A DNA stretch of 32,000 nucleotides from Candidatus Altimarinota bacterium (GCA_041659405.1 JBAZYK010000001.1:150001-182000), one strand, 5' to 3'. Shown: positions 3,195-28,688, counted from the first letter of the stretch. The notes: generated by a model not told the origin, from the sequence alone. Numbers and translations are program-made.

Positions 3195-4619
<1,425 letters not shown>

Positions 4620-5225: not shown

Positions 5226-5229
5226 TTTA

Positions 5230-5283
5230 TTTGCGTGTGCCCGGGCACAGATTTATGCCAGAAAAATGGCCTATGTAAGCCAT
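5230..5283 (+). repeat. S-element copy S1 (14-bp perfect palindrome plus a second hairpin); possible atp operon terminator
   Basis: Sequence: TTTGCG-TGTGCCCGGGCACA-GATTTATG...ATGGC-CTATGTAA-GCCAT. By my hand alignment, 42 of 54 positions are identical to the reverse complement of 17296-17349. It lies in the convergent gap between atpC and the 1405-aa ORF. Confidence 0.8.
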
Positions 5284-5333
5284 CAGGGTCCGCCGCCTGC
5301 TATGCCACTGCGCTCGTGTCGCCACCGGTTTGA

Positions 5334-8300
5334 TTAGGTTGCGCCGCCGCCTGGTCCGCCAGCACCGCCGGCCCCGCCAACGCCACCACTTGCGGCCCCA
5401 CCGCCGATTTTCCCGCCCTCTTCAGGCCTTTCTGCAGCGCTTTCACTTGTCCTATCCGCCTCTGCTTTTGGTTTTGGTGGATTTTCTTTTTCTGCGATTA
5501 GATGTTGAAGCCTTTGGATTTCTTCATCCAGCAGTTTTTTGTCGCCTGCCTGACTAATGTAAGTGTTTTCTTTAATGTGCTGGATAATTGTATTCACGCG
5601 CGCATTTTGTGCCTTTTTAATATCTGAAAAACCCGACGGATTGCTTGTGTTTAATTTCTCTTCAAGTTTGCTAACCATAGTGACCCCAGCTTCAATCTCA
5701 GGATTATGATATGCTTCCAAAGTGATTTCTTCTTTGGCCAGCTTTGCGGCTTCCGCTTTGGCTTTTTCCTTATCGTAACCTTCCGGCAGGGGCTGAATTC
5801 CCTGAATATTCATACCAACCGCATGGTTATCCCTTTGAATTTTTGCGAATATCTCATTTAATTCTTCGAGTTTTTTTCCATGCATTTGGCCTTCAAGCAT
5901 TTTTCCAAACTCACTGATAGAATTTTTTTGCTGTTCACGGTCAGTGGTAGAAGGCGCGGCTCCAAAATTCTTGAAGACCATATCTACTTCGCTTTTCAAG
6001 CCAAACTGTCCGGATAAAGCTTTAATAAAAGCACGCATTTCATCTCTGTGTTTTATAACCGGGCGGGATGGATCATTGACCGGTCTGCTGTTCAATTCCT
6101 GGCTGCCAAAGCGGGAATAGTTATTCGAGGCAGGTTCCCAACGACGATCAAGGATAGCATCAAAACGAATAAAACTTCTCATGATATTTACCAGGTTCCT
6201 CAATTCTTTTTGAGCGTTTTCCTGATCTCCGGCTTTTAAATATTTATCGATGAGTTTCATTTTTCTTAAAGAGAAGTCATTAAAACCGGCGTAACAGTTC
6301 TTAAGACCTTCATTTGTAATCTGCTGCTTGGCACCACCGGCTTTTAGGGTGAGCTGTTCAATTGTTTCTTCACCAAGTGGAGGAGCAAATTTATCCATAT
6401 CGTCATGGTCCCAAATATTGGCATCACCTACAGCTTTGTTCATACGTTTTAACGAGCTGTCATGCCACAAAACTTCATCATTCACAAAGTCTTTAAACTT
6501 TGTACCTGGCCCCATCTGCTTTTTATAATCGGTGACACCGGCTGTACCGCCCTGCAAATCCGGCTCAACATAAAGCCTGATCCAATGTTTAAAAACATTA
6601 AGATCTGCCTTGCCAAGTTGGGGCTTTGTTTCACCTGTATTTGGATCCTTCTCATAAAGCGGCCTTCCTTCGGAATCAACCATCGGGAAGTCTGATCTAT
6701 TTGCAAAGAAGTCCAAAACCGGCATGTTCTTAAGCAAATCACTGTTCAAGGCACCATTACGATCAATATGGAATAAAGGCAGTCCGTGTCCTTTATGAGG
6801 ATGGGCTCCAATCGCCATAACCATGAAATAGATTTTCTCTTCAAAACCCAATTTACCGGCTTGAATGGCGTAACAAAGGTAAGCTTCATATTCTGCCGGA
6901 TTTACGTATTCGCCATTAAGATGTTTATAGAGCAAACTCTTAAGCGCTGTTTTTAAACCTCCGTTGTGATATGGATCACCTTCCAAACGCTTGGCATTAT
7001 CAGCAAAAGCACTTTTAATGCTGTTATAAGATGAATCCTGTTTTTGCCTGAATTCACGGAAAGTATCATTTCCCCACCAGTGATCCAAAACTTTTTCAAT
7101 GTCATCCATGTGCGTTGCGGCATTCACAAAAACCGGCACACCGTGAGAATGTTTATTTATACAATGCCAGAAATGCTCATCATCCCAGCGCAACTGGCCT
7201 TTTTCGGCCAATACCGTGATGGACGCTTTCAAAATATCTTTATTTGGAGCCTCGTGGAGTTCATGTTTAATAAAATCGATACCCATTGTTCGATAATGTT
7301 CCACGTGATGATTCACTTCTTCATTTTCCGCGTGCTGGGCAACGCCTTTAAATTCGGCACCCAATTCGGTAAAGAAGCTGCTTAGGCCGTGATAGCCCTT
7401 AAACATGGCCTCCCCGGCTATACCAACTTTGCCATGAGACCAGCGTTTTAATTTACGTTCCACCAATTCATAAGTGGTTTTGCCGATTTCGAATAAGTCA
7501 TAAAGTGAAACAATCGTGGTATCATCCCACATTTGGCGCAGGTAACTTGTTGGATGTCTTGGGGCTTCATTGCCGGTGTCAAAGACAGCATCTTCCGGAA
7601 TTTTTTCTTCTGCGGATTTTGCGACTGGAGGTTGTCCCGCGCCTTGACCATGTTCCGGACCTTCGGGCCCACCTGCCCCCGCTGCTCCTGCGGCTGCGCC
7701 CGCTAATGCGGCAGCGCCTGCAGCTCCACCTTCTGCTGCTTTTACTGCTTCTTCCGGTGGTTTTTTAATAATGTGATTCTTTTTAACCCAGCGTAAAAAG
7801 GCTGCCGGAGTAAAAGTGTCGCCATTTTTCATGACAACTTTTTTATCATCAATTTCCTTGATCACAAATTTCTTTTCTGATTCGACATCGTCGTATTTCA
7901 GGACTTCACCGCTAACTGCCTGAATTGGCTTGTACAAATTTGGATCGCGTTTGTAGACCTGATTTAAAATTTCGTTATGCTGAACCAAAGCTTCCCGCAA
8001 TTTTGCGGCGCTTTCAATTGGCTTCATTACTTCGTTTCGTTTGAACCATCTGGCAAAATGGGCAAAATTTAAAGTTTTTACTTTTTGAGTTGGAGTAATT
8101 AAAACCTCCTGATCAAGCGTAATCTGCTGTTTGTCGTGATCAATTTTTTCAACTCTCACCAGACTGTCTTTTGGCGAAAAGTTTTGAGTTGTCGCGTCCA
8201 GTAATTGGCGATATTCAAAACGGTCGCCTTCGTTTACGTCAACGCCAATGCTTTTTTCCAGATCTTTTTTGGTCTGGATGTCTTCCGTAACACCAAATTT

Positions 8301-9551
8301 GTCGATCCATGTTAAGAAATCGGCAACCGAAAATCGGTCGGTTCTAATAACTTTGCTGTCCGTATCCAGCGATTCAATAACGATAATTGGAGAACCGGGA
8401 AGTTTTTGGGTTACACGACCTTTGTCATCCTTAATTATGACATCTTCAGTTTCGATTCCTTTAATTTTTGCTTTTTCATTTATTTCTTCAACTTCACCGG
8501 TTTTGCCGTTTTCACGGAAACCCTTATAAACTAGAATCTGATCAGCTTTTAATGGTAATCCGGCGGCGCTCGCAAAGACTTCCAGCTGTTTTTCTCTGTT
8601 TAGTTTTTTGTGGACTTCCGTGCCAACTTCACTCATCAGCTCGCGGAATTCATGCATTTTCTCCAGAGTTTCTTTTTTGATTTTGACATCATTTTCGGCT
8701 TCTTTTACTTTTAATTTATAAACCGCTTCAATCGCAGCTTTGGCTTTTGGATCGGTAATATCTTTGACGAGTTCGGCCCATTTTCCTTTGCCACCTTCAT
8801 CATTAAAATCCACTTCGTAAAGCTGATAGGCCAAGACCGAAGTAATCTGATTTTCGTCCGCCATTTCTTTTAAAGAACTTTGAATTGGCTCGTTGAATTT
8901 TTTATCGTCTTCGTTTAGACGTTTAAAATCAGCATGAAAAGCCTTAATTCTTTCGGCATATTCCTGACTTTCAGGTGAGGCTCCCATCATGGCAGATGCC
9001 GCTTTTCCGCTTGTTGATACCGCTTCTTCGGTCTGCGCTTCGACTTTTTTCTTTACATCAAAAGAGAGTTCTTTTTCATCGTCTTTTTCCTTTTCTTTAT
9101 CTTCATCCGCTTTTGCCGGAGTTTTCTTTTCGACCTCGGACAAAAATTTATTGAATTCACTTAAACTGAGCGTGCCATCGGAAGCACGTTGCAGATGCGG
9201 AATTAAAGCCTTTTTATCCTCTTCACTGCCCTTTTCCAAAATTTTCAGACACTTGGCAACATTGGCACTATCGATTTTCTTGTCCTTGCCCAAAGTCTGA
9301 ACAACTTCACGCGCATTGGATTGCGTCACCGTGACCTTATCTTTCTTTTCGGCATCCTTATCGGCCTTGTCATCATCTTTATCTGGATCGATTTTGTCCG
9401 CAGTGCCGCCGCTACCGGAGCCACCGGAACTTCCGCCGGCAGCAAAAATAAAACGAGACGCTGGCAAATGTGAACCTGCGACTGAGCACCAAAAAATCCC
9501 GCCCGGTGTAAGGCTTTCTGCCATTCTTCCGCAAAGAGCATGTTTAATCAT
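5334..9551 (-). CDS. Giant orphan protein (1405 aa) with Gly/Ala-rich termini and hinge and three internal repeats; function unknown
   Basis: An uninterrupted 4.2-kb ORF. It has Gly-rich tracts near the N-terminus (GGSSGGSGSGG), in the middle (GGAAGAAALAGAAAGAAGAGG) and at the C-terminus (GGAASGGVGGAGGAGGPGGGAT). Three modules each end in an F..W..K motif. I saw no signal peptide, TM segment or Walker A by eye. A TTGACA-16-TACAAT promoter lies just upstream. Confidence 0.85.
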   Translation of the reverse strand: MIKHALCGRMAESLTPGGIFWCSVAGSHLPASRFIFAAGGSSGGSGSGGTADKIDPDKDDDKADKDAEKKDKVTVTQSNAREVVQTLGKDKKIDSANVAKCLKILEKGSEEDKKALIPHLQRASDGTLSLSEFNKFLSEVEKKTPAKADEDKEKEKDDEKELSFDVKKKVEAQTEEAVSTSGKAASAMMGASPESQEYAERIKAFHADFKRLNEDDKKFNEPIQSSLKEMADENQITSVLAYQLYEVDFNDEGGKGKWAELVKDITDPKAKAAIEAVYKLKVKEAENDVKIKKETLEKMHEFRELMSEVGTEVHKKLNREKQLEVFASAAGLPLKADQILVYKGFRENGKTGEVEEINEKAKIKGIETEDVIIKDDKGRVTQKLPGSPIIVIESLDTDSKVIRTDRFSVADFLTWIDKFGVTEDIQTKKDLEKSIGVDVNEGDRFEYRQLLDATTQNFSPKDSLVRVEKIDHDKQQITLDQEVLITPTQKVKTLNFAHFARWFKRNEVMKPIESAAKLREALVQHNEILNQVYKRDPNLYKPIQAVSGEVLKYDDVESEKKFVIKEIDDKKVVMKNGDTFTPAAFLRWVKKNHIIKKPPEEAVKAAEGGAAGAAALAGAAAGAAGAGGPEGPEHGQGAGQPPVAKSAEEKIPEDAVFDTGNEAPRHPTSYLRQMWDDTTIVSLYDLFEIGKTTYELVERKLKRWSHGKVGIAGEAMFKGYHGLSSFFTELGAEFKGVAQHAENEEVNHHVEHYRTMGIDFIKHELHEAPNKDILKASITVLAEKGQLRWDDEHFWHCINKHSHGVPVFVNAATHMDDIEKVLDHWWGNDTFREFRQKQDSSYNSIKSAFADNAKRLEGDPYHNGGLKTALKSLLYKHLNGEYVNPAEYEAYLCYAIQAGKLGFEEKIYFMVMAIGAHPHKGHGLPLFHIDRNGALNSDLLKNMPVLDFFANRSDFPMVDSEGRPLYEKDPNTGETKPQLGKADLNVFKHWIRLYVEPDLQGGTAGVTDYKKQMGPGTKFKDFVNDEVLWHDSSLKRMNKAVGDANIWDHDDMDKFAPPLGEETIEQLTLKAGGAKQQITNEGLKNCYAGFNDFSLRKMKLIDKYLKAGDQENAQKELRNLVNIMRSFIRFDAILDRRWEPASNNYSRFGSQELNSRPVNDPSRPVIKHRDEMRAFIKALSGQFGLKSEVDMVFKNFGAAPSTTDREQQKNSISEFGKMLEGQMHGKKLEELNEIFAKIQRDNHAVGMNIQGIQPLPEGYDKEKAKAEAAKLAKEEITLEAYHNPEIEAGVTMVSKLEEKLNTSNPSGFSDIKKAQNARVNTIIQHIKENTYISQAGDKKLLDEEIQRLQHLIAEKENPPKPKAEADRTSESAAERPEEGGKIGGGAASGGVGGAGGAGGPGGGAT

Positions 9552-9597
9552 GTTTTGCTTTGGTTATGGATTTGATCAACGTTGTAATTTCGGCTTG

Positions 9598-9625
9598 ATT
9601 GTATCATGATTTTTAGGTTTGTCAA
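9598..9625 (-). promoter_or_regulatory. Sigma-70-like promoter upstream of the 1405-aa ORF
   Basis: Read on the minus strand: TTGACA (9625->9620), a 16-nt spacer, then TACAAT (9603->9598). It sits in the 82-nt gap between the 831-aa and 1405-aa ORFs, about 45 nt upstream of the ATG at 9551. Confidence 0.5.
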
Positions 9626-9633
9626 ATTGGGTT

Positions 9634-12129
9634 TTATTTTGTTCTGTAATATTTGCCATCTGCCCCTATCGTTACCGATGCTCCTGGTGTGACTGATTTA
9701 ACTTGTGCAGCATCGAATGCCAATGGGTTACTTTCTGTACCAAGGGCTCCTTTTGCTGCGGCTGTAGGTTTAGCACCCCCCGCCGCCTTTGGCGCTGGTG
9801 GTGGGGTTGGTGGTTTAGTATAAATATCCTTAGCCGTCTTGTTGCTACCCATTTCGGCTTCGGAATAATTGGCCTTCAAGTACTCTTGCATTCTACCTTT
9901 TTCCTCATCGTTTAATTGCATGCCTTTTAATTGATTTTCGACTGCAGTTAAAGTTGCGGCTTTATCGGCAGCATTCTGTCCTTTTGCTGCTGATATTTGA
10001 TCAAGAAGGCCGGCAAGCTTTTGTTGTTTTGCTCCGGCAGCTTGGGCATCCTCAGGTTTGGCAAGTTTTTGCAAAATACCTGCTGCTGAAGCATCTACTG
10101 TTTCGGATTTAATTGCTTTTTCCATTACGGCCTTATCGCCTGGAGAAAGCGTTCCTTGCTTTTGTTCATAAGCGGCGACCAGCTTGTCGGCTTCGGCTTC
10201 GGCGTCCTTTCCGCTTTTACCTTTCATTAATGCCTTTTTAAGTTTTTTACTTGCATCGCTTTGGGCCGTGGTTTTTGCGGCTCCGGCTTTTGATTCATCA
10301 ACGTAACCCAATTTATCGCCTAACAGGTTCATGTCAGTCGGCGTTACATTTCCTTCTTTCAGAGCTGTTAAAAGTGTGTCTTGAGTATGACCCCCCACCA
10401 AAGGAAGTTCATTTCGGTGTGTTTTGAAATATTCATGCAAAGCTTTTTGGTTAGCTTCTCTTACAAAATCGGCTGCTGACACTTTTCTAATATTATTCTT
10501 TAGATCTTTAAGATTGGCTGATGTTCTAACAGCACCTACGGCTTTATCGTTATTGCCATAAGCCGCTGAAAAAGTTTCTCTGGAATGTTCATGTGCTTGT
10601 TGATCAACCAAATTTGGAATGTTTTTTGCGCCCAAAAAGATGTCCATAACGGAAGCTCGTTTTCCACCGGCGTCGATTGGGAACATTGGGGCCATAAGCG
10701 GCAATTTGGCAATGGTTTTACCCATTCCGCCAACAAAGTTCTTAATACCGTCCGTAATGCCGGAAGCTTGTGTATCCTTCATTGCATCGAAGACCGCTTT
10801 CCAAATGAACCCAACACAGGCAACCGCCGTTAAAAGTTGCTGGAAAGTGGAAATACCGGAAGTGAAAAGATTCATTCCCCAGGTGGATTGATTAAGTGCC
10901 CATGTTGGAAATTCACTTTTAGACAAGGCACTCAACATCACCGTACCTATGGCTAAAGATACCGCCACAGGAATTGGCACAATGGCATGTTTGATGAATT
11001 GACCTTTAATGTCATCTCCACCTCCGCCCATCATACTTTTCAATTCACCCGGCAAAACCCACATAAGTACGATCAATGGTGAAAGCACAATCATAATCCA
11101 TAAAACTATCATTCTAACCAAAAGTACTGCAAAAAGTGCAATAAAGGCGGATCCATAAATTATGTAAAGAATCACCGAAAGCAAAACGTTTGCCACCAAA
11201 TTTTTGATATTTGCCTGTTCAGTGTCATTTAATCCATCTGCAATCATACTAATTTTACCAATTTGTTCAAAATTTAACGCAAGAACAACGGCAACGTTTC
11301 TGGAATTGATGCTGTTGAAATAGCCATTAAGATCGGCTAGGTCGGTATTATTCTCACGATCAAATTTTGCCAAGTCTACTTCTTTACCATTAACTATTCC
11401 TTTGACTGTTTGATTCAAACAAACTGCTTTTTTTCCATTGCTGGGAGTAGCCGGTACTGCGTATTTTCCTTGATCATTTGTATACATCGCGCGGCAAAGT
11501 TCATTTTCAATTTGTTCCTGCTGAAGTGTTATTCCTACGGCTTGCGGTAGCGCAAAAATACCGGTTGAAATTACGTTGATACCGTCCAGGACCACTTTTA
11601 CGCCCAAGAAAGTAAAGTTTACCAGAATCAATCCAATAATAAATTTTGGCAGTACGGCTTTAACATGAAAGTCCTGCTGAAAACCGCCAACAACGTTATA
11701 AAGGGCGATTCCAACAAGTATTAAAACAAAAAGGATATTTACAATGTCACGTACCTGCACCCAAACTTTTAGCAGGGTTTGCTCCATGCCGGATCCAAAC
11801 AGAATGTCATTCTGCAGCAAATTGCCAATCAGTAATAAAAATGGCCAAAGCAGACTTCTCATCACTCGCAGAATTGGGGTGATGGCATTTAATAATTTTT
11901 GGCCATCATCTTGGCTTGGGGTGGCGCCTTGTGCATGCGCCAAGTTGATGTTTGGCAGCAAAACGCCGGCGACAATCAAAACAAGTCCAAACGCAAGAAT
12001 GGATTTGCGGTGCGCGCGCCAGAATGCGAGCATGGTTCGCCAGAGTTTGGCGGACTTGCTTTGCACTTTGTGCGTGGTGGCAAAAAGGCGGCGGACCAGA
12101 TTTTTTTTGATTTTCAGCAATGTAAACAT
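9634..12129 (-). CDS. Polytopic membrane protein (831 aa) with a long Ala/Lys-rich C-terminal tail; function unknown
   Basis: There is a signal-peptide-like segment ILAFGLVLIVAGVLLPNINLAHA/QG. At least 7 further hydrophobic segments follow, for example LLWPFLLLIGNLL, IVNILFVLILVGIALY, LLSVILYIIYGSAFIALFAVLLVRMIVLWIMIVLSPLIVLMWVL and IVPIPVAVSLAIGTVMLSAL. The last ~330 aa are hydrophilic and Ala/Lys-rich. An alternative start at Met33 (ATG at 12033) would give a canonical signal peptide. Confidence 0.85.
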   Translation of the reverse strand: MFTLLKIKKNLVRRLFATTHKVQSKSAKLWRTMLAFWRAHRKSILAFGLVLIVAGVLLPNINLAHAQGATPSQDDGQKLLNAITPILRVMRSLLWPFLLLIGNLLQNDILFGSGMEQTLLKVWVQVRDIVNILFVLILVGIALYNVVGGFQQDFHVKAVLPKFIIGLILVNFTFLGVKVVLDGINVISTGIFALPQAVGITLQQEQIENELCRAMYTNDQGKYAVPATPSNGKKAVCLNQTVKGIVNGKEVDLAKFDRENNTDLADLNGYFNSINSRNVAVVLALNFEQIGKISMIADGLNDTEQANIKNLVANVLLSVILYIIYGSAFIALFAVLLVRMIVLWIMIVLSPLIVLMWVLPGELKSMMGGGGDDIKGQFIKHAIVPIPVAVSLAIGTVMLSALSKSEFPTWALNQSTWGMNLFTSGISTFQQLLTAVACVGFIWKAVFDAMKDTQASGITDGIKNFVGGMGKTIAKLPLMAPMFPIDAGGKRASVMDIFLGAKNIPNLVDQQAHEHSRETFSAAYGNNDKAVGAVRTSANLKDLKNNIRKVSAADFVREANQKALHEYFKTHRNELPLVGGHTQDTLLTALKEGNVTPTDMNLLGDKLGYVDESKAGAAKTTAQSDASKKLKKALMKGKSGKDAEAEADKLVAAYEQKQGTLSPGDKAVMEKAIKSETVDASAAGILQKLAKPEDAQAAGAKQQKLAGLLDQISAAKGQNAADKAATLTAVENQLKGMQLNDEEKGRMQEYLKANYSEAEMGSNKTAKDIYTKPPTPPPAPKAAGGAKPTAAAKGALGTESNPLAFDAAQVKSVTPGASVTIGADGKYYRTK

Positions 12130-12153
12130 TTTTGTTTTATTAAATATTTATTT

Positions 12154-13761
12154 TTATAAATTGATGGCGGTAAACCACGATGGAAGCAGAACCGCTGCGA
12201 AACCACTTGTTATGACCGCCCCTGCCACCACTTTTCCACCATGTTTTTGGAAAAAACTTTTTGCAGCTTGCTGCACCGGTGGCTTGTACCCTGTTGGGGC
12301 CGGCGGTTGTGCTGCTGTTACTTGTGGTTTGGCTTCTACAGGTGCGGGTGTTGCTTTTGCAGGTTTTGCATTTGGAATATAGGAAGGTTTTTTATTTTCC
12401 ATCATCTTTTTCAAATCAAAAGGGCTTTTTTGCGCCGGTATATTCGAAATTGGCCTTGTTTGCGCTCCCTGCGTTGGTGCCGACTGGCGGTTTACCATGG
12501 TTGGCTGCTGGCCAGAGGCATTTGGCATTGATTGATAAACAGGACTTGGGGCCGGTTCTTTTTTTGCCGGAGGTTCCGGTTTTTCGGCTTCTGAAGACTT
12601 TTGGCCTTGGGTAGCCATAGGAGCAACTTCTTGCCCGGTTGCTTTTTGAGGTGGCTGCGCAACTTGTCCTTTTTGTTCAACTTGCGGCTTTGTTTGGCCC
12701 GGCACTGGCTGTCCCTGTGTAATTTGTGGCTGACCAGCTCCACCCAATAATTCCTGAGCAGCCTGCAGAATTTTGGCCGCTTCGCTCTGTTCATTCATTC
12801 TTTGCTGCTCGATTAAATCAAAAACTTCCGCTACCGTACGCAGTTTTCCGGTATCCGGATCTTGTAATAATGCTTTAAATTGATCCGCGGAAATTGTAAA
12901 TTTCTTTTCAGGATTGTTTTCAGGTTCAAATGTATAAAATTTATTTTCAGGATTTTTTGGATCATCTGAAATAGTCAGATGTACATTTGCGTCCCCTTCC
13001 TGAAAGGTTTGCATAGTCACCGCTTCATCCGGAAAGGTGATGTCTGCGGGCATTAGGCCGGCATTTTCCGGAACAATGTTTGCCGTGCCGACACCGGAAG
13101 ATCCCGCGCCAACCGTTGATTCCTGCGAAAAATCGCCCGAACCGTACATAAATCCAGCGCCATAATCGGAAGGTGGGCTAATTAAAGGCACAATTTTTTG
13201 TCCCGGCTGAATTTTGGTAATATCCTGAACCTGATCAAATTTACCTGTGGTCGGATTTTTTGTTACGATAAGCCGTCTTTGCGCCTGTAACTTTATTAAT
13301 TCCGCCTTTTCCGTTTCAGATTTTTGCTCAATAATTTTGGCCATTTCAATTTTCTGGAACTCTCCGGCAATCTTGTAAGCCATTAAATAAAGCATTCTGC
13401 CTGCGGAAGGTGGAAAATGCGGAGTTTTGTCGTCCTGTTTGTAAGTTGGAATCAAAAAATTGCGGCGAGTTGTTTCGTCCGCAGGGGCCTGCGCTATAAT
13501 CGCCTCCTGTAAAAATTTTATAAAATACAATTGATTATCAGGGGCAATAAATGGCTTAATGCTTTGATCATTTTGACCATGTAAAAAATATTCCATCTGG
13601 AATTTTTCGACTTCGGCCGGTCTTGCCTTTGTTCCATCCTTATTCACCCAATGTTCATTTTTTAAAAGTGAGGCATGCTTGCCTTGGCTTATATCCACCA
13701 TGACCCTTTTTAGCAAAGGGACCAGGTACAGGTCGACCAAATTGTGATTAAATTGGTTCAT
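12154..13761 (-). CDS. Tail-anchored orphan protein (535 aa) with a long Pro/Gln-rich spacer; function unknown
   Basis: The N-terminal ~330 aa look globular. About 180 aa of Pro/Gln/Ala-rich low complexity follow. A single C-terminal hydrophobic segment closes the protein (GGKVVAGAVITSGFAAVLLPSWF). Its start lies 2 nt after the stop of the upstream 528-aa ORF, which suggests translational coupling. Confidence 0.8.
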   Translation of the reverse strand: MNQFNHNLVDLYLVPLLKRVMVDISQGKHASLLKNEHWVNKDGTKARPAEVEKFQMEYFLHGQNDQSIKPFIAPDNQLYFIKFLQEAIIAQAPADETTRRNFLIPTYKQDDKTPHFPPSAGRMLYLMAYKIAGEFQKIEMAKIIEQKSETEKAELIKLQAQRRLIVTKNPTTGKFDQVQDITKIQPGQKIVPLISPPSDYGAGFMYGSGDFSQESTVGAGSSGVGTANIVPENAGLMPADITFPDEAVTMQTFQEGDANVHLTISDDPKNPENKFYTFEPENNPEKKFTISADQFKALLQDPDTGKLRTVAEVFDLIEQQRMNEQSEAAKILQAAQELLGGAGQPQITQGQPVPGQTKPQVEQKGQVAQPPQKATGQEVAPMATQGQKSSEAEKPEPPAKKEPAPSPVYQSMPNASGQQPTMVNRQSAPTQGAQTRPISNIPAQKSPFDLKKMMENKKPSYIPNAKPAKATPAPVEAKPQVTAAQPPAPTGYKPPVQQAAKSFFQKHGGKVVAGAVITSGFAAVLLPSWFTAINL

Positions 13762-13763
13762 AT

Positions 13764-15350: not shown

Positions 15351-15466
15351 TTTTTTTGGATTTTTAATTAGTAATTGGTAGTTTTTTGGGATTTTCCTGC
15401 TTGTGATTTGAACTTTGTTTGTTTTGAATTAATGTTTTCATGGAGCCCTAGGCACGCGTGTTGTAT

Positions 15467-16021
15467 TTACAGCCGAAAAAGTCGCAGCAGAATATCAAGA
15501 AAAGCTTCATCTTTGCCTTCCCATTCCGAAATCTGCGAGCATAAAAACTGCCTTAATTGCACGGGATCTTGGTTATTCAGCTGAATGCTTAAATCGGCAT
15601 AGTAGTGCCCTTTATCCACACGAATATTTAAAGTTTTAATAAACGGCGGATTGTAATGGAGCCAAAAAGCTTTGATGTGGCTGAAAGGGTAGGTTTTGTG
15701 CCCAACTTTTACGCCAATTTCAGAAATTTTGATCTCGATTTCCTTGGGTGGATGATAATTTTGAATGTAATAATAAACTGCGCCAAAGGCTATAATTGCC
15801 AAAGCCATGGTCCAGTTTCCTTGTAAAATAGCCACAAAAATGAAAATTGCAGCCACGATGCCGGCAACCAAATACCAGCGCTCGCCCTTTTGGTGCTGCA
15901 GATATTCCGGAGCAATCCAGGCAAAAACGGCGTTATCGTACAAGGTTTCGTCCTGGGATACATCTGACTTGTTGTTAGTTCGGCTTTGTGTTTTTGTCTT
16001 GTTGAAAAGTTTTTTTAGCAT
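15467..16021 (-). CDS. Small membrane protein (184 aa), two TM helices plus a C-terminal beta-rich domain; function unknown
   Basis: Two adjacent hydrophobic helices (WYLVAGIVAAIFIFVAILQG and MALAIIAFGAVYYYI) are followed by about 100 aa of soluble sequence. It is the first gene of the minus-strand cluster. Confidence 0.75.
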   Translation of the reverse strand: MLKKLFNKTKTQSRTNNKSDVSQDETLYDNAVFAWIAPEYLQHQKGERWYLVAGIVAAIFIFVAILQGNWTMALAIIAFGAVYYYIQNYHPPKEIEIKISEIGVKVGHKTYPFSHIKAFWLHYNPPFIKTLNIRVDKGHYYADLSIQLNNQDPVQLRQFLCSQISEWEGKDEAFLDILLRLFRL

Positions 16022-16736: not shown

Positions 16737-17888
16737 ATGATCGCAGAAAATAAAAATGATAGCGACGACCAAAAAATCACAAGTCTCAACGACCGGGAAT
16801 TATTTTCACTCTGCCAAAAATACGGAGAGCAAGCCAGAATCTGGCGGCAGAAATTTGCGGGTCTATTGCCGGAAGTGCTCAAAAGACGCTTGTACGAGCG
16901 CAAAGGTTTTGAATCAATTTTCGTGTTTGCCAAAAAACTGGCAGGCATGAGCGAAGAACAGGTTCGTCGCGTGCTCAATTTGGAGCAAAAATTTGAAAAT
17001 AAACCGGCATTGAAAAATTTGTTGTTGAATGGCGAAGTCAGCGCAAACAAGCTCGCAAGAATTGCTTCAATCGCAACACCGGAAAATCAGGAATTTTTGG
17101 CAAACCAGAGCAAAATACTTTCGAATCGTGCGCTCGAAACTTTTGTGAAAGATGAAAAATTCGCTCAAGAAACACTAAATCATAACTTGCAAAATTCCAT
17201 AGGTGTAGAAAATCAAAACTCAAGCCAAAACCAATCGCAAATTTTAATTCAAAACGGCGAGCCGGAAAATAAAAAAGGCTCACCTGAAAATGCAAACGGC
17301 TTACAGGAGCCATTATTTGATCACAAATCTGTGCACGTGCACACGCAAACGACAGATCTTTTCGAGGATGTCAAATTGCTCCAAAAATTTTCGCCGGAAC
17401 TCAAAGAAAAACTAAAAGAGCTCGATGAAAAAGGTCTCAACATTAATCAAATCCTGCTTGAACTTTTGCAAAATCGCGACGAAGAAATCGCAATGGAAAA
17501 AGAACAAATTGGCGAAGAAATAGTGAAGGCGCAGCTAATGCAACAACAGGCAATGGATACGAAAAAACAGGCTGCCAGCGCTCAAGAAAAAATCGGTGTT
17601 GAAATCGCCAGCGCTCAGGAAAAATCTAAAAGCGAACTGCCCACAAAAAAGCCGTCCCACTACATCAACGTAAAAATTAAAAATCTGCTCAAAAAAGAAC
17701 ATGGCGATAAATGCTCAATTCCTGGCTGTAACAAGCCGGCTACGACCATTCACCATACGCAAAGATTCACGCTCTCCCATAACAACGATCCTCGCTTTCT
17801 GGCTCCATTTTGCGAACAACATCACGAAATCGCGCATTCGATTGATCAGAAATATCAGCAAAAAAGAGTATTGGCTGTTTCGGCTTAG
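16737..17888 (+). CDS. HNH endonuclease domain protein (383 aa)
   Basis: The C-terminal HNH/zinc-ribbon-like block is CSIPGCNKPATTIHHTQRF...FLAPFCEQHHEIAHS. The N-terminal helical domain and the Gln/Lys-rich linker were not recognised. The central linker is encoded by S-element copy S3. Confidence 0.8.
   Translation: MIAENKNDSDDQKITSLNDRELFSLCQKYGEQARIWRQKFAGLLPEVLKRRLYERKGFESIFVFAKKLAGMSEEQVRRVLNLEQKFENKPALKNLLLNGEVSANKLARIASIATPENQEFLANQSKILSNRALETFVKDEKFAQETLNHNLQNSIGVENQNSSQNQSQILIQNGEPENKKGSPENANGLQEPLFDHKSVHVHTQTTDLFEDVKLLQKFSPELKEKLKELDEKGLNINQILLELLQNRDEEIAMEKEQIGEEIVKAQLMQQQAMDTKKQAASAQEKIGVEIASAQEKSKSELPTKKPSHYINVKIKNLLKKEHGDKCSIPGCNKPATTIHHTQRFTLSHNNDPRFLAPFCEQHHEIAHSIDQKYQQKRVLAVSA
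17248..17349 (-). repeat. S-element copy S3 (extended form), antisense inside the HNH ORF
   Basis: The reverse complement reads TTTGCG-TGTGCACGTGCACA-GATTTGTG...ATGGC-TCCTGTAA-GCCGT-TTGCATTTTCAGGTGAGCCTTTTTTATTTTCC. It aligns with S1 over 54 nt and with S2 over about 80 nt. Confidence 0.8.
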
Positions 17889-21035: not shown

Positions 21036-21066
21036 GGTGTTGAATTAAAATAAGTAGTTCAGGTTG

Positions 21067-21510: not shown

Positions 21511-21564
21511 AGATGAGGATTTATAATATGAATGTTTTTATGCCGGCGTAGCAGCGCAAATCTG

Positions 21565-22125: not shown

Positions 22126-22149
22126 TCTTTCTATGGGTTAAGAAATAGA

Positions 22150-22495
22150 TGCTTAAGTAAGCCAATCCGGATTTGAGGATAAGGTGTCGCTTTGCGACTC
22201 CCTACTGCTAGGCCTGCTTAGGGCAGGCGCTTGCCTCACTTCGTTCGGCTTACAGAAAGAAAAGCATTGGGACTTTAACAAAAACTTTTCCTTAAAGCAA
22301 GTGTTGCTCGCGATAGAGATAGTCACTCATGGGCGTAGCGGAAAAATCCAAAGCTGCCTTGAAGCCCTTGCCTTAGTTGATTCAAAAATAGCCTTGGCTG
22401 ATATAAGCCACAATTTGCCAAGATTTGCCAAATCCGGACTTTTTCCTAAGTTTTATTTCCCGTAAGATCATGCTCAATGTCAAGGATGGCTTGCT
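22150..22495 (-). ncRNA. Candidate structured RNA with RNase P RNA-like motifs (possible rnpB); alternatively a long rpsF leader
   Basis: On the minus strand, AGGAAAAAGUCCGGAUU (22447->22431) resembles RNase P CR-I, GAGGAAAGUCCGG. About 275 nt downstream come GAGGCAAGCG, a GCCUGC-CCUAA-GCAGGC hairpin (22228->22212), CCUAGCAGUAGGGA, a GUCGC-AAA-GCGAC hairpin (22198->22186) and AAAUCCGGAUUGGCUUAC (22174->22157). These are collinear with the E. coli blocks GGAGCAAGGCC ... CCUAGAUGAAUGA-CUGUCCACGACAG-AACCCGGCUUA. No convincing ORF is present. I could not fold P1-P3 or P5 cleanly by hand. Confidence 0.4.
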
Positions 22496-24037: not shown

Positions 24038-24103
24038 GAAGAACTCTATTTACAAAGATTAGCGGTCACTATAGACTAACCCCCGGCCTTTTTGTCATGC
24101 CCT

Positions 24104-24364: not shown

Positions 24365-24418
24365 TAATTATAAATCTTACATCAATTCGTCACTCCTAAT
24401 TCGTAATTCGTAATTTCT

Positions 24419-25957
24419 ATGATCAAGCGTGCCCTCATCAGCGTTAGTGATAAAACGGGATTAGTTGAATTTGCTCAGGTTTTAGCAAAGGGTGGAGTTG
24501 AAATTCTTTCGACCGGAGGAACGGCAAAAGCGCTTAAAGAAGCTGGAATTAAAGTTACCGAAGTTTCGGACTTTACCGGTTTTCCAGAGATTTTGGATGG
24601 CAGAGTCAAAACACTTCATCCAAAAATTCATGGAGGACTTTTGGCCTTGCGTGAAAAGCCCGAACACATGGAACAGATCAAAAAACTTGGCATTGAGCCG
24701 ATTGATTTGGTGGTTGTGAATTTGTATCCTTTTGAGGAAACGGTCGAACGTGAAGATGCGACTGCTGCGGAAATTATTGAAAATATTGATATTGGCGGTC
24801 CGAGTATGATCCGTTCTGCAGCCAAAAACTTTGGTTCGGTTACTGTAGTCACAAATCCAATGGATTACGCCGGGGTAATGGAAGAATTCAAAAAGAATGG
24901 CGATACCACTCTGGAAACGCGCAAGTTGCTGGCCAGAAAAGCCTTTTCCAGAACTTATCAATATGACGAAGCAATTGATCATTACTTTAGAAAAGAACTT
25001 GGTGAAGCGGAACTTTTGGATCTGCATTATGAAAAAGTTCAGAGTTTGCGCTATGGCGAAAATCCGCACCAGAAAGCGGCCTTCTTCCGAAACCCTTTAA
25101 ACAAAGATGCCAACATTACCAATGCCAAGGTGCTGCATGGAAAGCAACTTTCGTTTAATAACATTGTAGATGGGGACGCTGCTTTGGAACTGGTTAAGGA
25201 GTTTAAAAAGCCAACTGTTGCCGTTATTAAGCACAATAATCCATGTGGTGTTGCTTCCGCGGAAACTATTGAAGAAGCTTTTGAATTGGCTTTTAATGTT
25301 GACCCGATGTCGAGTTTTGGTGGAGTTATTGCCATGAATCGACCTTGCAACATGAATTTGGTAAATTCAATCAATCAAAAAAAATGGTTTGTGGAGATTA
25401 TTATTTCCCCAAAATTTGAAGAAGATGCTTTAAAAGAGCTGATGAAGAAGCCAAATTTGCGTTTGCTTGAAACCGGACCGTTAAAGCTTGATCTGCAAAG
25501 TCGTGACATCAAAAAAGTTGCCGGCGGTATTTTAATTCAAACCAAAGACACTTATCTGGTTTCAGAAAAAGATTTGAAAGTTGTAACAAAAAAACAGCCA
25601 ACTCCCGAGCAAATCAAGAGTATGCTTTTTGCAACGACCATTGTTAAACACGTGAAATCAAATGCGATTGTCTTGGCTAAGGCGGAAGTGGTAATGGGAA
25701 TTGGCGCAGGACAAATGTCACGCGTGGATGCCGTACATTTGGCTTGTTATAAAGCCGGAACGGAACGGGCGAAAGGCTCGGTAATGGCGTCGGATGCGTT
25801 TTTTCCTTTTGCGGATGGTGTGGAGATGGCTGCTGAAAACGGAATAGAAGCTATTGTTCACCCCGGTGGGTCAATCCGCGACGAAGAAGTAATCAAGCGC
25901 GCGGATGAACTTGGCTTGGTAATGGTGGTTACCGGCGTGCGGTTTTTTAGGCATTAG
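24419..25957 (+). CDS. purH: Bifunctional AICAR formyltransferase / IMP cyclohydrolase PurH
   Basis: The MGS-like N-terminal domain reads ALISVSDKTGLVEFAQVL...ILSTGGTAK...DGRVKTLHPKIHGGLLA. The AICARFT domain carries LRYGENPHQKAAF, KHNNPCGVA, GAGQMSRVDAV and SDAFFPFADGVE. Confidence 0.97.
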   Translation: MIKRALISVSDKTGLVEFAQVLAKGGVEILSTGGTAKALKEAGIKVTEVSDFTGFPEILDGRVKTLHPKIHGGLLALREKPEHMEQIKKLGIEPIDLVVVNLYPFEETVEREDATAAEIIENIDIGGPSMIRSAAKNFGSVTVVTNPMDYAGVMEEFKKNGDTTLETRKLLARKAFSRTYQYDEAIDHYFRKELGEAELLDLHYEKVQSLRYGENPHQKAAFFRNPLNKDANITNAKVLHGKQLSFNNIVDGDAALELVKEFKKPTVAVIKHNNPCGVASAETIEEAFELAFNVDPMSSFGGVIAMNRPCNMNLVNSINQKKWFVEIIISPKFEEDALKELMKKPNLRLLETGPLKLDLQSRDIKKVAGGILIQTKDTYLVSEKDLKVVTKKQPTPEQIKSMLFATTIVKHVKSNAIVLAKAEVVMGIGAGQMSRVDAVHLACYKAGTERAKGSVMASDAFFPFADGVEMAAENGIEAIVHPGGSIRDEEVIKRADELGLVMVVTGVRFFRH

Positions 25958-26184
25958 GACGCCTGCCCGTACTTTTCCGCAAGATATTTAACGATTTCAG
26001 AAGATTCGTTCATGATTGTGCCGTTGTCGTCGATTACAGGCACTGTTCCGCCAAGCTTGATGACAACTTCAGGTTTATTGGCAGGATCGATATTCACTTT
26101 TTCGTAATCGAGCTTTAGTTCAGCCAGTTTTTGACGAACTTTTTCGCAAAAAGGACATTCGGTGTATTGGTAGAGTTTAATCAT
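25954..26184 (-). CDS. Glutaredoxin-like small redox protein
   Basis: A 76-aa thioredoxin-fold ORF with the active site CPFC (MIKLYQYTECPFCEKVRQKL...) and TVPVI. Its stop codon overlaps the purH stop codon (25954-25957, convergent). Confidence 0.85.
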   Translation of the reverse strand: MIKLYQYTECPFCEKVRQKLAELKLDYEKVNIDPANKPEVVIKLGGTVPVIDDNGTIMNESSEIVKYLAEKYGQAS

Positions 26185-26242
26185 AATTTGAAATTAAGAA
26201 TTAAAATTAAAGAATGGCACGTTGATTTGCTCGACCGGTTAA

Positions 26243-26770
26243 ATGAGCGCTGATAGAATTGTTTTGATTATATCAGTCATTTTTTTAAAGTCACTTTTTT
26301 CATTTTTTATGGATTTTCCAATAATTTTGCTGGCGAAATATTTTTATCTTTTTGTTGTTGTAATTGGAGTTCTGGTTGTTTTGATGGAAGCAAAAAAAGA
26401 CCGTGTTAATACCATTAAATTGGCTATTGCCGCTTTACCGCTTTCGTTTATTTTTTCCAGAATTGCTGCTGCGTTGTTTTATAATCCTCGGCCATTCGTG
26501 GTTGATAAAATCACGCCGCTGATTGCGCATGCGGCTGATAATGGCTTCCCTTCGGATCATACTTTGTTCGTCATGACAATTTCGGCAATCGTTTTTGCTT
26601 ATAATAAAAAAGCGGGCATGGTTTTAGTTTTATTGTCTTTAGTTGTTGGACTTAGCAGAGTTTTGGCAAAAGTGCATCACGGAATTGATATTTTGGGAGG
26701 TATGGGGCTCGCATTTGTAGCTACATATATTTGCTTTATAGGTCTAAAAAAATTGAAGTTGATAAAATAA
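26243..26770 (+). CDS. PAP2-family membrane phosphatase (undecaprenyl-diphosphatase-like)
   Basis: A multi-TM ORF with the three PAP2 motifs: ...YNPRPF, PSDH and SRVLAKVHHGIDILGG. The true start may be the internal Met (MDFPIILL, near 26309). Confidence 0.8.
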   Translation: MSADRIVLIISVIFLKSLFSFFMDFPIILLAKYFYLFVVVIGVLVVLMEAKKDRVNTIKLAIAALPLSFIFSRIAAALFYNPRPFVVDKITPLIAHAADNGFPSDHTLFVMTISAIVFAYNKKAGMVLVLLSLVVGLSRVLAKVHHGIDILGGMGLAFVATYICFIGLKKLKLIK

Positions 26771-26799
26771 AAAAAATTTATTTAATCCTAAAGAGCCAC

Positions 26800-26829
26800 G
26801 TCCCATTGATCCTCGTGGGACCATTTTTA
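26800..26829 (+). terminator. Rho-independent terminator candidate after the PAP2 gene
   Basis: GTCCCA (26800-26805) pairs with TGGGAC (26816-26821) around a 10-nt loop. The tract CATTTTTA follows. Confidence 0.5.
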
Positions 26830-26839
26830 CCTATTTCTC

Positions 26840-26868
26840 TGGACAAAAAACTGCTTATCTTTTAGAAT
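26840..26868 (+). promoter_or_regulatory. Sigma-70-like promoter upstream of purP copy 1
   Basis: TGGACA (26840-26845), a 17-nt spacer, then TAGAAT (26863-26868), about 28 nt upstream of the ATG at 26896. Confidence 0.45.
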
Positions 26869-26895
26869 AGGTCAAAGTTCATTTTGCATATAAGT

Positions 26896-27936
26896 ATGGG
26901 AAAAATCTCTGATTACGTAATCGCAACAATCGGAAGTCATTCGGCATTACAGATCCTAAAGGGCGCAAAGGATGAAGGCTTTAAGACCTTGTGTATCTGT
27001 GAAAAAGGCCGTGAGGTTGCTTACAAAAGTTTCAAAGTGGCCGATGAATTTATCATGCTTGATTCAATGAATGATTTTTTCTCGGTTGAAGAAGAGCTGA
27101 TTAAAAGAAACGCGATTTTGATTCCACATGGTTCATTTGTAAGCCAAATTGGCTGGGAAAAAGTTCAGGATTTAAAGGTTATGCATTATGGAACAAAAGG
27201 TATTCTGGAATGGGAATCGGATCGTGTAAAAGAGCGCGAATGGCTTAAGGCAGCCGGACTTCGCCAGCCAAAAGTTTTCAAAACTCCTGAAGATATTGAT
27301 CGACCGGTGATTATTAAATTTCATGGAGCTAAGGGAGGCAAAGGTTATTTCATCGCTAATAATACAAAAGAATTTCATGAACGCATCAAGGAATACCCTA
27401 ATGAAACTGGTTATGTTATTCAGGAATACATTGTAGGTGTGCCAATTTATACTCATTATTTTTATTCACGCCTGACCCAGGAATTGGAGTTGATGGGTTT
27501 TGATAAACGTTATGAATCCAACGCGGATTCAATTGGACGCATTGCCGCAAAAGATCAGCTGGATGCCAATATTCGTACATCCTACACAATTACGGGCAAT
27601 ATGCCTTTGGTACTGCGCGAATCGATTTTGCCGGAAGTTTTTGAAATGGGCGAAAATGTAGTGCGCGAGTCACGAAAATTGGCAGAGTTTAAGAGTGGAA
27701 AAATCATGACTGATGGCTTATTTGGGCCATTTTGTCTGGAAGCGATCTTGGATCCACATTTGAATTTTTATGTTTTTGAAATTTCCGCCCGCATTGTGGC
27801 AGGAACAAATCCTTACGTTCATGGCTCACCTTACACCTGGCTTCGTTACGACGAACCAATGAGCACCGGCCGTAGAATGGCGCGTGACATTAAGCAGGCA
27901 ATTGAAGGCGATCAGATTGAAAAGGTTTTGGGGTAG
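26896..27936 (+). CDS. purP: Archaeal-type FAICAR synthetase PurP (formate-dependent, ATP-grasp), paralog 1
   Basis: The N-terminus MGKISDYVIATIGSHSALQILKGAKDEGFKTLCICEKGREVAYKSF matches the PurP N-domain pattern as I recall it. An ATP-grasp C-terminal half follows (VIIKFHGAKGGKGYF..., VIQEYIVG, FVFEISARIVAGTN). I prefer the ATG at 26896 over the TTG at 26884. Confidence 0.8.
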   Translation: MGKISDYVIATIGSHSALQILKGAKDEGFKTLCICEKGREVAYKSFKVADEFIMLDSMNDFFSVEEELIKRNAILIPHGSFVSQIGWEKVQDLKVMHYGTKGILEWESDRVKEREWLKAAGLRQPKVFKTPEDIDRPVIIKFHGAKGGKGYFIANNTKEFHERIKEYPNETGYVIQEYIVGVPIYTHYFYSRLTQELELMGFDKRYESNADSIGRIAAKDQLDANIRTSYTITGNMPLVLRESILPEVFEMGENVVRESRKLAEFKSGKIMTDGLFGPFCLEAILDPHLNFYVFEISARIVAGTNPYVHGSPYTWLRYDEPMSTGRRMARDIKQAIEGDQIEKVLG

Positions 27937-27999
27937 ATTCGGCAAATACCGTCGCGATAATGCAGTAGGTAGAGAAATTTAGTCCGGTTTGGGTACTTT

Positions 28000-28512
28000 T
28001 TAAGCCTCTGATGCTGGTGGTGCTTCTGTTGATGGTGGATCTTCCGGCGGCGGTGGTGGGACGAGTGTGTCCCTTAATGCTTGGCCTAATTGTTTGCCTG
28101 TTTCATCTCTGCTGGCTTCTAATTTGCTAAGATCTGCCGGTTTTAGTCTTATGACGTAAACACGTCTTACTTCACTGATTAAAGCGCGATATTTTTCGTA
28201 GCGATCCCGCATCCTGTTAGTTGGTCCCTGCGATACCATCTGTTTAATGCGTTGCCTGAAGTCTTTTTTTTCAGTAGCTTTTGGCTTTGTTGTTTTTTCA
28301 GTCTCGAAAAGTTTCTCCATTGCTTGCCCTGCTTCAGCTCTTTTTTCTTCTAGAGCTCTTCGCAATGCTATTAAATCATCAGTTGAAAGTGTCTCCAGTT
28401 TATCCTTGCCAAAAGTTGGGGACCACGTTTTGTCGAATGTTTTCATTACTTCATCAAGTAACGCCTGGGCTTCCGTGCTCATGTTTTCTGAATGTTTTTC
28501 AGCTGTATCCAT
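28000..28512 (-). CDS. Orphan charged helical protein (170 aa) with a Pro-rich C-terminus
   Basis: The ORF runs on the opposite strand between the two purP paralogs. It is charged and coiled-coil-like and ends in PPPPPEDPPSTEAPPASEA. No motif was recognised. A same-region plus-strand ORF (28247-28525) looks like its shadow. Confidence 0.6.
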   Translation of the reverse strand: MDTAEKHSENMSTEAQALLDEVMKTFDKTWSPTFGKDKLETLSTDDLIALRRALEEKRAEAGQAMEKLFETEKTTKPKATEKKDFRQRIKQMVSQGPTNRMRDRYEKYRALISEVRRVYVIRLKPADLSKLEASRDETGKQLGQALRDTLVPPPPPEDPPSTEAPPASEA

Positions 28513-28607
28513 AGTTTTTTGTTAATTTTTTACTCGTTGTACCATTTTACCATATTGTACAGATTCCAGCAAATACCCACTTGGTTCCCAGAATGGGCAA
28601 TTACACG

Positions 28608-28688
28608 CTTACTTGTGCGTGCGCACAGATTCATGGTCAATCTTGGCTTATATTAGCCGTTTCGATTTTCAAAAGGACGTTTTTAATT
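28608..28688 (+). repeat. S-element copy S2 (extended form) in the divergent gap upstream of purP copy 2
   Basis: Sequence: TGTGCGTGCGCACA-GATTCATGGTCAATCT-TGGC-TTATATTA-GCCGT-TTCGATTTTCAAAAGGACGTTTTTAATT. It aligns with S3 (reverse complement) over about 80 nt and with S1 over the first two modules. Confidence 0.8.

Follow-up and report, generated by a model that had tools for sequence, protein, structure and literature searches.

A 32,000-nt stretch of the genome of a Candidatus Altimarinota bacterium (GCA_041659405.1, JBAZYK010000001.1:150001-182000; hereafter the window) contains three copies of a palindromic repeat, the S element. One copy, S3, lies within an open reading frame (ORF) that encodes a 383-amino acid protein with a helix-turn-helix (HTH)-like N-terminal domain and a C-terminal HNH nuclease domain. 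We have compared these copies and the surrounding gene with related loci from other genomes, and conclude that the S element is very probably a composite double-stranded DNA site of about 60-75 bp belonging to a family of HTH-HNH nucleases of Candidate Phyla Radiation (CPR) bacteria, and that the solo copies, which stand outside the gene, are dispersed, free-standing sites. The protein encoded around S3 would recognize the 14-bp palindrome of the element with two-fold symmetry. Coordinates are collected in Table 1.

The three copies had been described in an earlier note, and their positions and mutual orientation were as claimed there. We observed that the sequence TGTGCNNNNGCACAGATT matches exactly at 5236 (+), 17343 (-) and 28614 (+), where 0.29 matches with up to 2 mismatches would be expected, and that the pattern TGTGC-N4-GCACAGATT has three exact matches against about 0.3 loose matches expected. 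S1 and S3 are indeed identical at 42 of 54 positions, and the similarity is above shuffled expectation (local alignment, 1000 shuffles) for S1-S3 (score 52 vs 12.4 ± 2.1, z = 18.7), for S2-S3 (score 41, z = 11.3) and for S1-S2 (score 24, z = 5.5). All 3 copies share a layout of palindrome, GATTyrTG, about 9 nt, and TGGC-N8-GCC. The contexts given earlier were also confirmed: S1 occupies a 108-nt convergent gap after atpC, bounded by the atpC stop (5225) and the stop of a 1405-aa gene (5334), S3 is inside the ORF, and S2 is in a divergent gap. The orientation assigned to the elements has to be turned around, as it was reversed relative to the gene that contains S3.

Further genuine copies were found in other genomes, and 12 copies served to build a covariance model of the S module. 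Pattern scans of genomes and of metagenomes gave only 5 matches each, about half of which look like chance (Spirochaete, Bacillus, Lacimonas and locus L010); the genuine ones, in loci L004, L006, L007 and L009, also have a downstream TGGC-N8-GCCRTTT that the pattern did not demand. The weaker partial matches proposed earlier within the window did not hold up: that at 22379-22410 scores 13.5 bits with the covariance model (22376-22429, E = 3.3), and those at 28538-28569 and 16563-16600 give no match. Viral contigs, searched both for the S pattern and for the protein, yielded nothing. By length, there are 3 copies in the 32 kb of the window, 3 in 21 kb of locus L014 and 0 in 55 kb of close relatives.

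Selection on the DNA of the genic module

The earlier note had rightly called for a cognate protein to be sought, and missed that the ORF holding S3 encodes the candidate. In the AlphaFold2 (AF2) model of this protein (predicted local distance difference test [pLDDT] score of 86), an all-helical, ParB/Noc-like HTH domain (residues ~10-155) is followed by a linker (~163-201), a long helix (236-287) and the HNH domain (~320-375). The linker, which lies between two confidently folded parts, has pLDDT values of 43-63 and is predicted to be disordered. S3 reads on the sense strand of the gene and encodes linker residues ~182-206 (ENANGLQEPLFDHKSVHVHTQT), the peptide specified by the S module being NQNGLQEPLFDxKSVHVHT. 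The L006 element is likewise inside an ORF, on the sense strand, and the C-terminus of that ORF has a CxxC…HH…CxxHH motif. Indeed, the genic copies of S3, L006, L011, L012, L014, L015, L022, L026 and L029 occupy the same place in homologous HNH genes, all on the sense strand, and nearly all of 120 listed homologues have the module peptide, in a linker of otherwise variable length. In L006, the HNH gene is split by a frameshift at 630-645, with an ATGA stop/start overlap directly ahead of the S module. Such a break could mean a pseudogene or an error of assembly, or the gene may truly consist of two ORFs.

Our comparisons of these genes showed that selection acts on the DNA of the module rather than on the peptide. 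Among pairs of identical residues in six genes, codon identity was 77% in the module vs 44% elsewhere (p = 1e-14), and the module ranked first in the whole gene for synonymous-site conservation, above the catalytic motif. The residues encoded at the palindrome are V/L, X, Y and H/Q, in which the XY dipeptide, in 108 sequences, was HV (53), PG (24), RA (13), YV (7), RT (3) or RS (1). These pairs are chemically unlike each other, yet reverse-complementary codons are available for them, as in CAC GTG, CCC GGG, CGC GCG and TAC GTA. Reverse-complementary codons are possible for 95 of the 108 central dipeptides (102 with Tyr-Val), compared with 40 ± 4, and at most 53, in shuffles. The outer residues follow the same rule, with V…H (39) and L…Q (35) vs V…Q (1) corresponding to GTG…CAC vs CTG…CAG. 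The DNA of fetched genes confirmed GTG CAC GTG CAC, GTG CGC GCG CAC, CTG CCC GGG CAG and CTG TAC GTA CAG, and the palindrome was intact in every gene examined. We attribute selection to the DNA because synonymous codons are kept, the dipeptides mostly allow reverse-complementary codons, the linker is predicted to be disordered, and non-coding solo copies keep the palindrome. Since the constraint surfaces in protein alignments as "palindromic dipeptides", it also cautions against reading conserved linker motifs as peptide signals.

The same observations bear on the possibility that the module is a functional linker peptide motif, with S1 and S2 as decayed fragments of an HNH gene. The string NQNGLQEPLFDxKS…HT is recognizable in almost all homologues, and the translated solos resemble this peptide. 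Yet the synonymous sites are the most conserved of the gene, the region is predicted to be disordered, and HV, PG, RA, YV, RT and RS, although chemically unrelated, are reverse-complementary in their codons. Also, the solos contain frame breaks or stops and nevertheless have perfect palindromes, and no remnant of the gene's two domains was found within ±1 kb of any of the eight. We therefore consider a peptide function extremely improbable as the explanation of the module.

The changes within the palindrome favor a duplex DNA site rather than an RNA hairpin. In 17 aligned DNA copies, the palindrome was 97.4% symmetric; 3 of its 7 pairs change on both sides, and there were 0 one-sided (G·U-type) changes. 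The two innermost pairs, which are unable to form in a hairpin, were as symmetric as the others. From the loop-less perfect palindrome with its symmetric changes, the earlier note had already inferred duplex DNA and a dimeric protein, and the co-variation described below strongly supports that inference. As a structure, the "second hairpin" it had drawn at TGGC-N8-GCC, which we call site A, was not borne out, for the 17 copies show disruptions only and no compensatory change. Site A also has no coupling to columns of the protein. In one lineage, AGGG/AAGG replaces AGCC, both in the genic copy and in one solo.

A small RNA gene had been listed among the possible identities, and we weighed it together with a cis-acting structured RNA, in either case with two or three hairpins and possibly a U-tract end. 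Hairpins can be drawn in all copies; in the earlier orientation S2 and S3 have T-rich tails; and, at S2, the weak site-A stem plus TTTCGATTTT was flagged as terminator-like, though the palindrome was not. Against this, no Rfam 15 model reached its gathering threshold, and even at E≤1 the S elements had no match; the fold energies are ordinary (z -0.2 to -2.2, and +0.7); and from copy to copy the predicted folds are not the same. The U-rich tails are not kept by the other copies, the elements lie in mixed orientation to neighboring genes, and the patterns of change at site A and at the central palindrome pairs are those just described. By these criteria, an RNA element has hardly any probability left. 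S1 contains no terminator-like or promoter-like site. We also rejected a middle hairpin, ATTTG…CAAAT, which is AT-only and shifts in register between copies, and a purine riboswitch, considered in view of the purL, purH and purP neighbors, which finds no Rfam match and would require 5' leaders, where the copies do not lie.

Co-variation of the palindrome with the encoded protein

The N-terminal domain of the 383-aa protein has an HTH-like pair of helices in the AF2 model (residues 61-69 and 73-85), with residue 78 within the second. In Foldseek searches of the PDB, the top 11 matches for the full model and the top 18 for the N-domain model were all ParB/Spo0J/Noc DNA-binding domains, the best being the complex of the Noc DNA-binding domain (DBD) with the Noc-binding site (NBS) (template modelling [TM] score 0.63, probability 1.0), although the E-values of these matches (0.08-2) are not significant alone. 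We found no ParB/Srx CTP-binding domain: Pfam ParBc gave no match even at E≤10, the structural matches cover the DNA-binding domain only, and the protein begins about 10 residues ahead of the helical DBD. The C-terminus is an HNH endonuclease by PHROGs (phrog_22514, E = 2e-6, 4/4 members); Pfam HNH models stayed below threshold for it. The Cys and His residues of CxxxxC…HH…CxxHH…H are invariant in 119 homologues, and Foldseek matches include Cas5-HNH, IscB and McrA.

This is a large family. A protein search returned 499 homologues, and a profile search of 1.84 billion cluster representatives gave 586 at E<1e-30 and 1327 at E<1e-10. All homologues examined come from CPR bacteria. The family is without annotation in Pfam, NCBIfam or PADLOC, the defense-protein models of PADLOC gave no relevant match for 4 members tested, and literature searches on HNH proteins in CPR, Peregrinibacteria and Gracilibacteria found no description of the system. 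Neighboring genes differ across all 8 gene loci, and among the recovered loci there was no empty-site allele of the same locus.

To relate protein to palindrome, every column of the folded domains was scored against palindrome class by normalized mutual information. The outer pair (V…H vs L…Q) was predicted by whether residue 78 is Arg or non-Arg, with a score of 0.92 where the 95th percentile of all columns was 0.28; the center (HV/PG/RA) was predicted by residue 130 (1.0) and residue 131 (0.70), the 95th percentile being 0.22. We then built 2×2 tables for two sets: the first comprised 107 homologues, and the second, independent one, 112 newly retrieved cluster representatives (50% identity). 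R78 accompanied a G-initial codon 199 (49/1/1/56, p = 3e-28 in the first set; 2e-17 in the independent set). Likewise, K130 accompanied Pro (CCN) (p = 3e-23 and 1e-19), Q130 accompanied Arg (CGN) (p = 8e-19 and 6e-13), and R131 accompanied HV (CACGTG) (p = 2e-24 and 2e-20). At the level of DNA, K130 thus pairs with CCCGGG centers, Q130 with CGCGCG and R131 with CACGTG. As an internal control, the other 16 positions encoded by the module had no outlier partner.

Several observations argue that this co-variation is more than shared ancestry. The outer and center classes assort independently of each other (LQ-HV 16, VH-HV 15, LQ-PG 11, VH-PG 10, and others); mean identity is nearly equal within and between classes (0.54 vs 0.52); and site and residues change jointly between proteins with 81-85% identity elsewhere. 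R78 tracks the first base of codon 199 rather than its amino acid, because it accompanies Ala-, Asp- and Gly-initial codons as well as Val. In the aggregate, these data show a joint diversification of protein and site that has produced many combinations.

From these associations we predict a recognition code in which R78 would read the outer G, K130 would read CCCGGG, Q130 would read CGCGCG, and any residue at 130 followed by R131 would read CACGTG. The window protein has R78, N130 and R131, and is predicted to read TGTGCACGTGCACA, that is, S3 itself.

Solo copies and the proposed action of the system

Eight solo copies are non-coding: S1, S2, L004a and L004b, L007, L009, and L014s1 and L014s2. 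S2, for instance, has a 1-nt deletion and in-frame stops. The solos retain a perfect palindrome and the constant TGGCTT-N4-AAGCCA.

Solos come and go among related genomes, and both S1 and S2 are missing from syntenic relatives. With an orphan 170-aa ORF (28512 to 28000), S2 forms an insertion of ~720 bp between two purP paralogues (27937-28700), and at that position the syntenic loci L019, L020 and L021 have only 9-112 nt and no S2. The purP genes of these three relatives are 90% and 78% identical to those of the window, and their 55 kb contain no S copy. A promoter-like element of purP2, TTGCCC-N17-TATGCT, lies downstream of S2 and is kept in the relatives that are without S2. Among the fetched loci, homologues of the 170-aa ORF are confined to the same genome. 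In L004, by contrast, two solos follow the purP orthologue. A lineage-specific variant is common to L014s2 and the genic copy on its contig, which suggests copying within the genome.

Other arrangements were seen around the solos. In L004 the order is S, a 158-aa ORF, S, and at about 5060-5100, ~60 nt from L004b, there is a third, degenerate S-like copy with a different palindrome (AGCCGTTATCTTGACAT then TTCTGTCTATAATGACAGAA). We considered an integron attC-like cassette boundary for this S-ORF-S order and for S2 with its 170-aa ORF, and rejected it: there are no R'/R'' core sites, and L020 and L021 have ORF indels at the same hotspot without S. In the L014 solos at 19449-19472 and 948-969, the perfect palindrome is longer, at 24 bp (AAATCTGTGCCCGGGCACAGATTT) and 22 bp (AAAGTGTGCACGTGCACACTTT), which suggests that the recognized site may reach past the 14-mer. 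In L002 (Candidatus Gracilibacteria JBBAAK010000011), the core AATCTGTGCACGYGCACA occurs without the rest of the module, three times (2806-2826, 3411-3427 and 3841-3857): one core is 9 nt upstream of TTGAGA-N16-TATAAT and tRNA-Tyr, one is upstream of an extended -10 (TGCTACAAT) and murA, and one is inside murA, encoding RSVHAH at a conserved RPVDLH-like position.

The identity of the elements as REP-like repeats, suggested earlier, has to be weighed here in a more general form, namely that they are mobile repeats of REP or miniature inverted-repeat (MITE) type, moved by a RAYT/TnpA-type or other transposase, and that one copy landed in an HNH gene. The elements are short, oriented, palindromic, intergenic and dispersed, and are present in some genomes only. 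Against this, essentially every homologue examined, down to 45% identity, has its genic copy at that one position, so that the copy is ancient and inherited with the gene; it also co-varies with residues of its own gene. We observed no terminal inverted repeats, target-site duplication or GTAG motif of REP type, and no HUH/Y1 transposase (RAYT) gene in the window or in about 320 kb of loci, and copy number is low. A mobile repeat of this sort is therefore very unlikely.

For the preferred reading, a site of the HTH-HNH protein, we propose the following mode of action. The protein would dimerize, probably via the long helix 236-287, and bind the palindrome, and the HNH domain would nick or cut near it. 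Placement of the site within the gene would keep the site and the specificity determinants genetically linked, the arrangement expected of a selfish nuclease or an initiator-like element. S1 and S2 would be non-autonomous copies, or footprints, of the same site; from their centers, S1 (CCCGGG) is predicted to match relatives of K130 type, and S2 (CGCACG) relatives of Q130 type.

An alternative keeps the binding and drops the cutting: the palindrome would be an operator, bound only for transcription control (as a roadblock within the protein's own gene, and for neighboring genes at the solos), with the nuclease irrelevant to the site. The same co-variation would attest binding in either case. 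S2 and L004a are 40-100 nt upstream of small ORFs, and the L002 core palindrome is 27-31 nt upstream of -10-like hexamers, at tRNA-Tyr and murA. However, no member of the family departs from the HNH catalytic residues, which indicates selection for nuclease activity. The usual place of a solo is after a gene or between co-directional or convergent genes rather than at a promoter, the promoter-like element of purP2 is downstream of S2 and persists in relatives that lack it, and the centers of the solos mismatch the resident protein. Of the operator identity put forward in the earlier note, there stands only the narrow part, the palindrome as a protein-binding site; the remainder found no support, and we consider pure transcription control unlikely.

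Two regulatory candidates were discarded. A sigma-54 or class II activator-dependent promoter does not fit, as GG-N10-GC calls for one base more than TGGC…GC provides and the purP2 promoter-like element is downstream of S2; in promoter orientation, moreover, most copies point against their neighboring genes. A likeness of ACGCAAACG, beside the palindrome, to a PurR box was judged coincidental because this sequence is coding and confined to the closest relatives.

The following points weigh against a site of the HTH-HNH protein. Its link to the palindrome is drawn from the co-variation together with a fold match of the non-significant kind given above, and sequence and profile searches did not place the N-terminal domain in any ParB or HTH family. 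The co-variation of linker codons with residues 78, 130 and 131 could in principle reflect contact between peptide and domain rather than between protein and DNA. About 15% of the genes have asymmetric half-sites (Leu…His), and although site A and the spacer, which make up the constant half, are conserved, co-variation does not account for this. As for the solos, the predicted code does not assign S1 or S2 to the resident R78/N130/R131 protein, so that a role for them in this genome would call for paralogues outside the window, and no target-site duplications or terminal repeats were present at the flanks of the 8 solos.

A bolder proposal, which we hold tentatively and as a minority possibility, is that the gene is a previously unrecognized single-gene selfish element, a site-specific nuclease with its own target in its reading frame. 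Its lineages would have become orthogonal "lock and key" pairs by combinatorial co-diversification of three residues and three base-pair positions, and cutting at matching sites, in other copies or other genomes, would drive gene conversion or spread and leave solos behind, either as footprints or as non-autonomous partners. If this were true, a compact HTH-HNH nuclease could be re-targeted by means of the recognition code that the family naturally provides and that can be read from it. More generally, what had been a nameless repeat becomes a protein-DNA system whose residue-to-base predictions can be tested. It also provides a first functional hypothesis for a large family that is common in CPR bacteria, where mobile-element biology is almost unknown. 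A cis site that is embedded in its own gene and co-evolves with it bears on the divergence of DNA-binding specificity, as in ParB and Noc, and on the linkage of enzyme and site in selfish nucleases.

Relation to known systems and setting in the window

Taken together, the S system resembles, in the way it works, a site reader of ParB/Noc type joined to a nuclease, and it belongs to no REP/RAYT, MITE or Rfam family. Two of the S-family centers, CACGTG and CCCGGG, recur as the hexamers of parS and NBS, and Bacillus subtilis spo0J contains a parS copy. By the Foldseek matches, the DNA-binding domains may share a ParB/Noc-like fold, and the families have in common a short perfect palindrome with two-fold symmetry that the S protein is presumed to bind. 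In ParB and Noc, specificity is split between a residue next to the HTH, which reads the half-site's outer base, and one in a later helix, which reads a near-center base (PMC7383237), a division of labor similar to that predicted for residues 78 vs 130/131 in the S family. Unlike ParB-parS, the S family has no CTPase/Srx domain and no ParA partner nearby, and is not detected by ParB profiles; its site is 14 bp rather than 16 bp, with a half-site one base shorter than in parS and NBS; it carries an HNH nuclease; and its specificity is combinatorially diversified, not fixed. Because there is no CTPase domain, the S family is outside the definition of ParB.

A cis site inside the coding sequence of its protein, with DNA under both coding and site constraint, is also found among replication initiators. 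In λ, oriλ is type-specific and falls in the stretch of gene O for the linker that joins the DNA-binding domain to the C-terminal one. In P1, oriL lies within the repL gene itself (PMC9948254). The S family differs from both in that it is without iterons, an adjacent defined AT-rich unwinding element or a replicon context, its genes being single in the chromosome, and in that its catalytic domain is HNH rather than a helicase loader or HUH nickase.

Free-standing HNH homing endonucleases, such as I-HmuI and the T4 Mob proteins, resemble the S family in being single, selfish-looking genes with a DNA-binding module, an HNH domain and a long specific site, and also in their variable neighborhoods and large, patchy family. 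The S gene is not a homing endonuclease gene, because its target is intact inside the gene rather than disrupted or adjacent; in addition, site and protein co-diversify, and solos persist in the same genome. REPIN/RAYT systems similarly have short palindromic intergenic repeats of variable copy number tied to one gene with or near a copy. In the S family, by contrast, the protein is HTH plus HNH and not HUH Y1, the master copy is in the gene and not flanking it, and copies are far fewer. Duplex DNA, rather than a single-strand hairpin, is apparently recognized, and the palindrome is perfect, with single copies and no GTAG-type head.

Actinobacterial HNH proteins of the DUF222/13E12 type also combine a helical N-terminal domain with a C-terminal zinc-HNH domain, and NCBI names some S-family members "HNH endonuclease signature motif containing", as it does these proteins. 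Pfam DUF222 does not match the S family, and we know of no report of an in-gene palindrome for the DUF222/13E12 type. The TIGR-Tas systems of CPR bacteria, also considered, are Nop-domain, RNA-guided and unrelated.

Table 1. Features of the S system in the window, with positions counted from its first nucleotide
Feature	Position	Strand	Basis or remark
Cognate-protein gene, 383 aa	16737..17888	+	ORF; predicted structure; homologues
Arg78 codon, predicted HTH recognition helix (residues 73-85)	16968..16970	+	co-varies with outer G:C pair
Asn130-Arg131 codons	17124..17129	+	co-vary with palindrome center (here CACGTG)
S3, genic S module	17278..17355	+	covariance model 85 bits, E = 4e-17; codon analysis
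S3 site A, CGGCTT-ACAG-GAGCCA	17297..17312	.	constant inverted repeat TGGCTT-N4-AAGCCA; center 32 bp from palindrome center
S3 palindrome TGTGCACGTGCACA (site B)	17330..17343	.	codons 199-202 = GTG CAC GTG CAC; predicted dimeric recognition site
HNH nuclease motif C-x4-C … HH … N/D-P … C-x2-HH-x3-H	17697..17861	+	
S1, solo non-coding S module	5224..5301	-	covariance model 64.8 bits, E = 2e-12
S1 palindrome TGTGCCCGGGCACA	5236..5249		
S1 site A	5267..5282		
S2, solo non-coding S module	28602..28678	-	covariance model 68.3 bits; alignment
S2 palindrome TGTGCGTGCGCACA	28614..28627		
S2 site A	28644..28659		
			
Orphan 170-aa ORF	28000..28512	-	context only

The window opens with the atp operon (91-5225, +), which is followed by a minus-strand block of genes for large proteins without a Pfam match. 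This block (5334-16021, -) is operon-like and encodes five large proteins (1405, 831, 535, 528 and 184 aa), none of which matches Pfam; the 1405-aa protein ends in a Gly/Ala-rich tail. Within a coding region, at 9056-9113 (-), there is a sub-threshold Rfam match to the archaeal C/D-box RNA sR52 (27 bits, E = 0.075), which is probably chance. The 715 bp between the 184-aa gene and the HNH gene (16022-16736) contain no convincing ORF and no Rfam match.

Further genes after the minus-strand block are purL, ssb, rpsF, an M23/LysM peptidase gene, purH and two archaeal-type purP paralogues, which are divergent (32% identical). The standard genetic code suits the window genes, and homologues carry the labels Candidatus Peregrinibacteria, Peribacteria or Gracilibacteria. 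Public assemblies also contain this sequence. Upstream of rpsF, the segment 22150-22470 is GC-rich with repeated "aatccgga" motifs, and an ORF in it (22184-22465) is probably spurious; the segment may be a ribosomal-protein leader, for which Rfam gives no match. In several loci, HNH genes of the family adjoin nucleotide-biosynthesis genes, with purL here (window 17974-20676, 24419-29914) and pyrB and carA in L012/L013.

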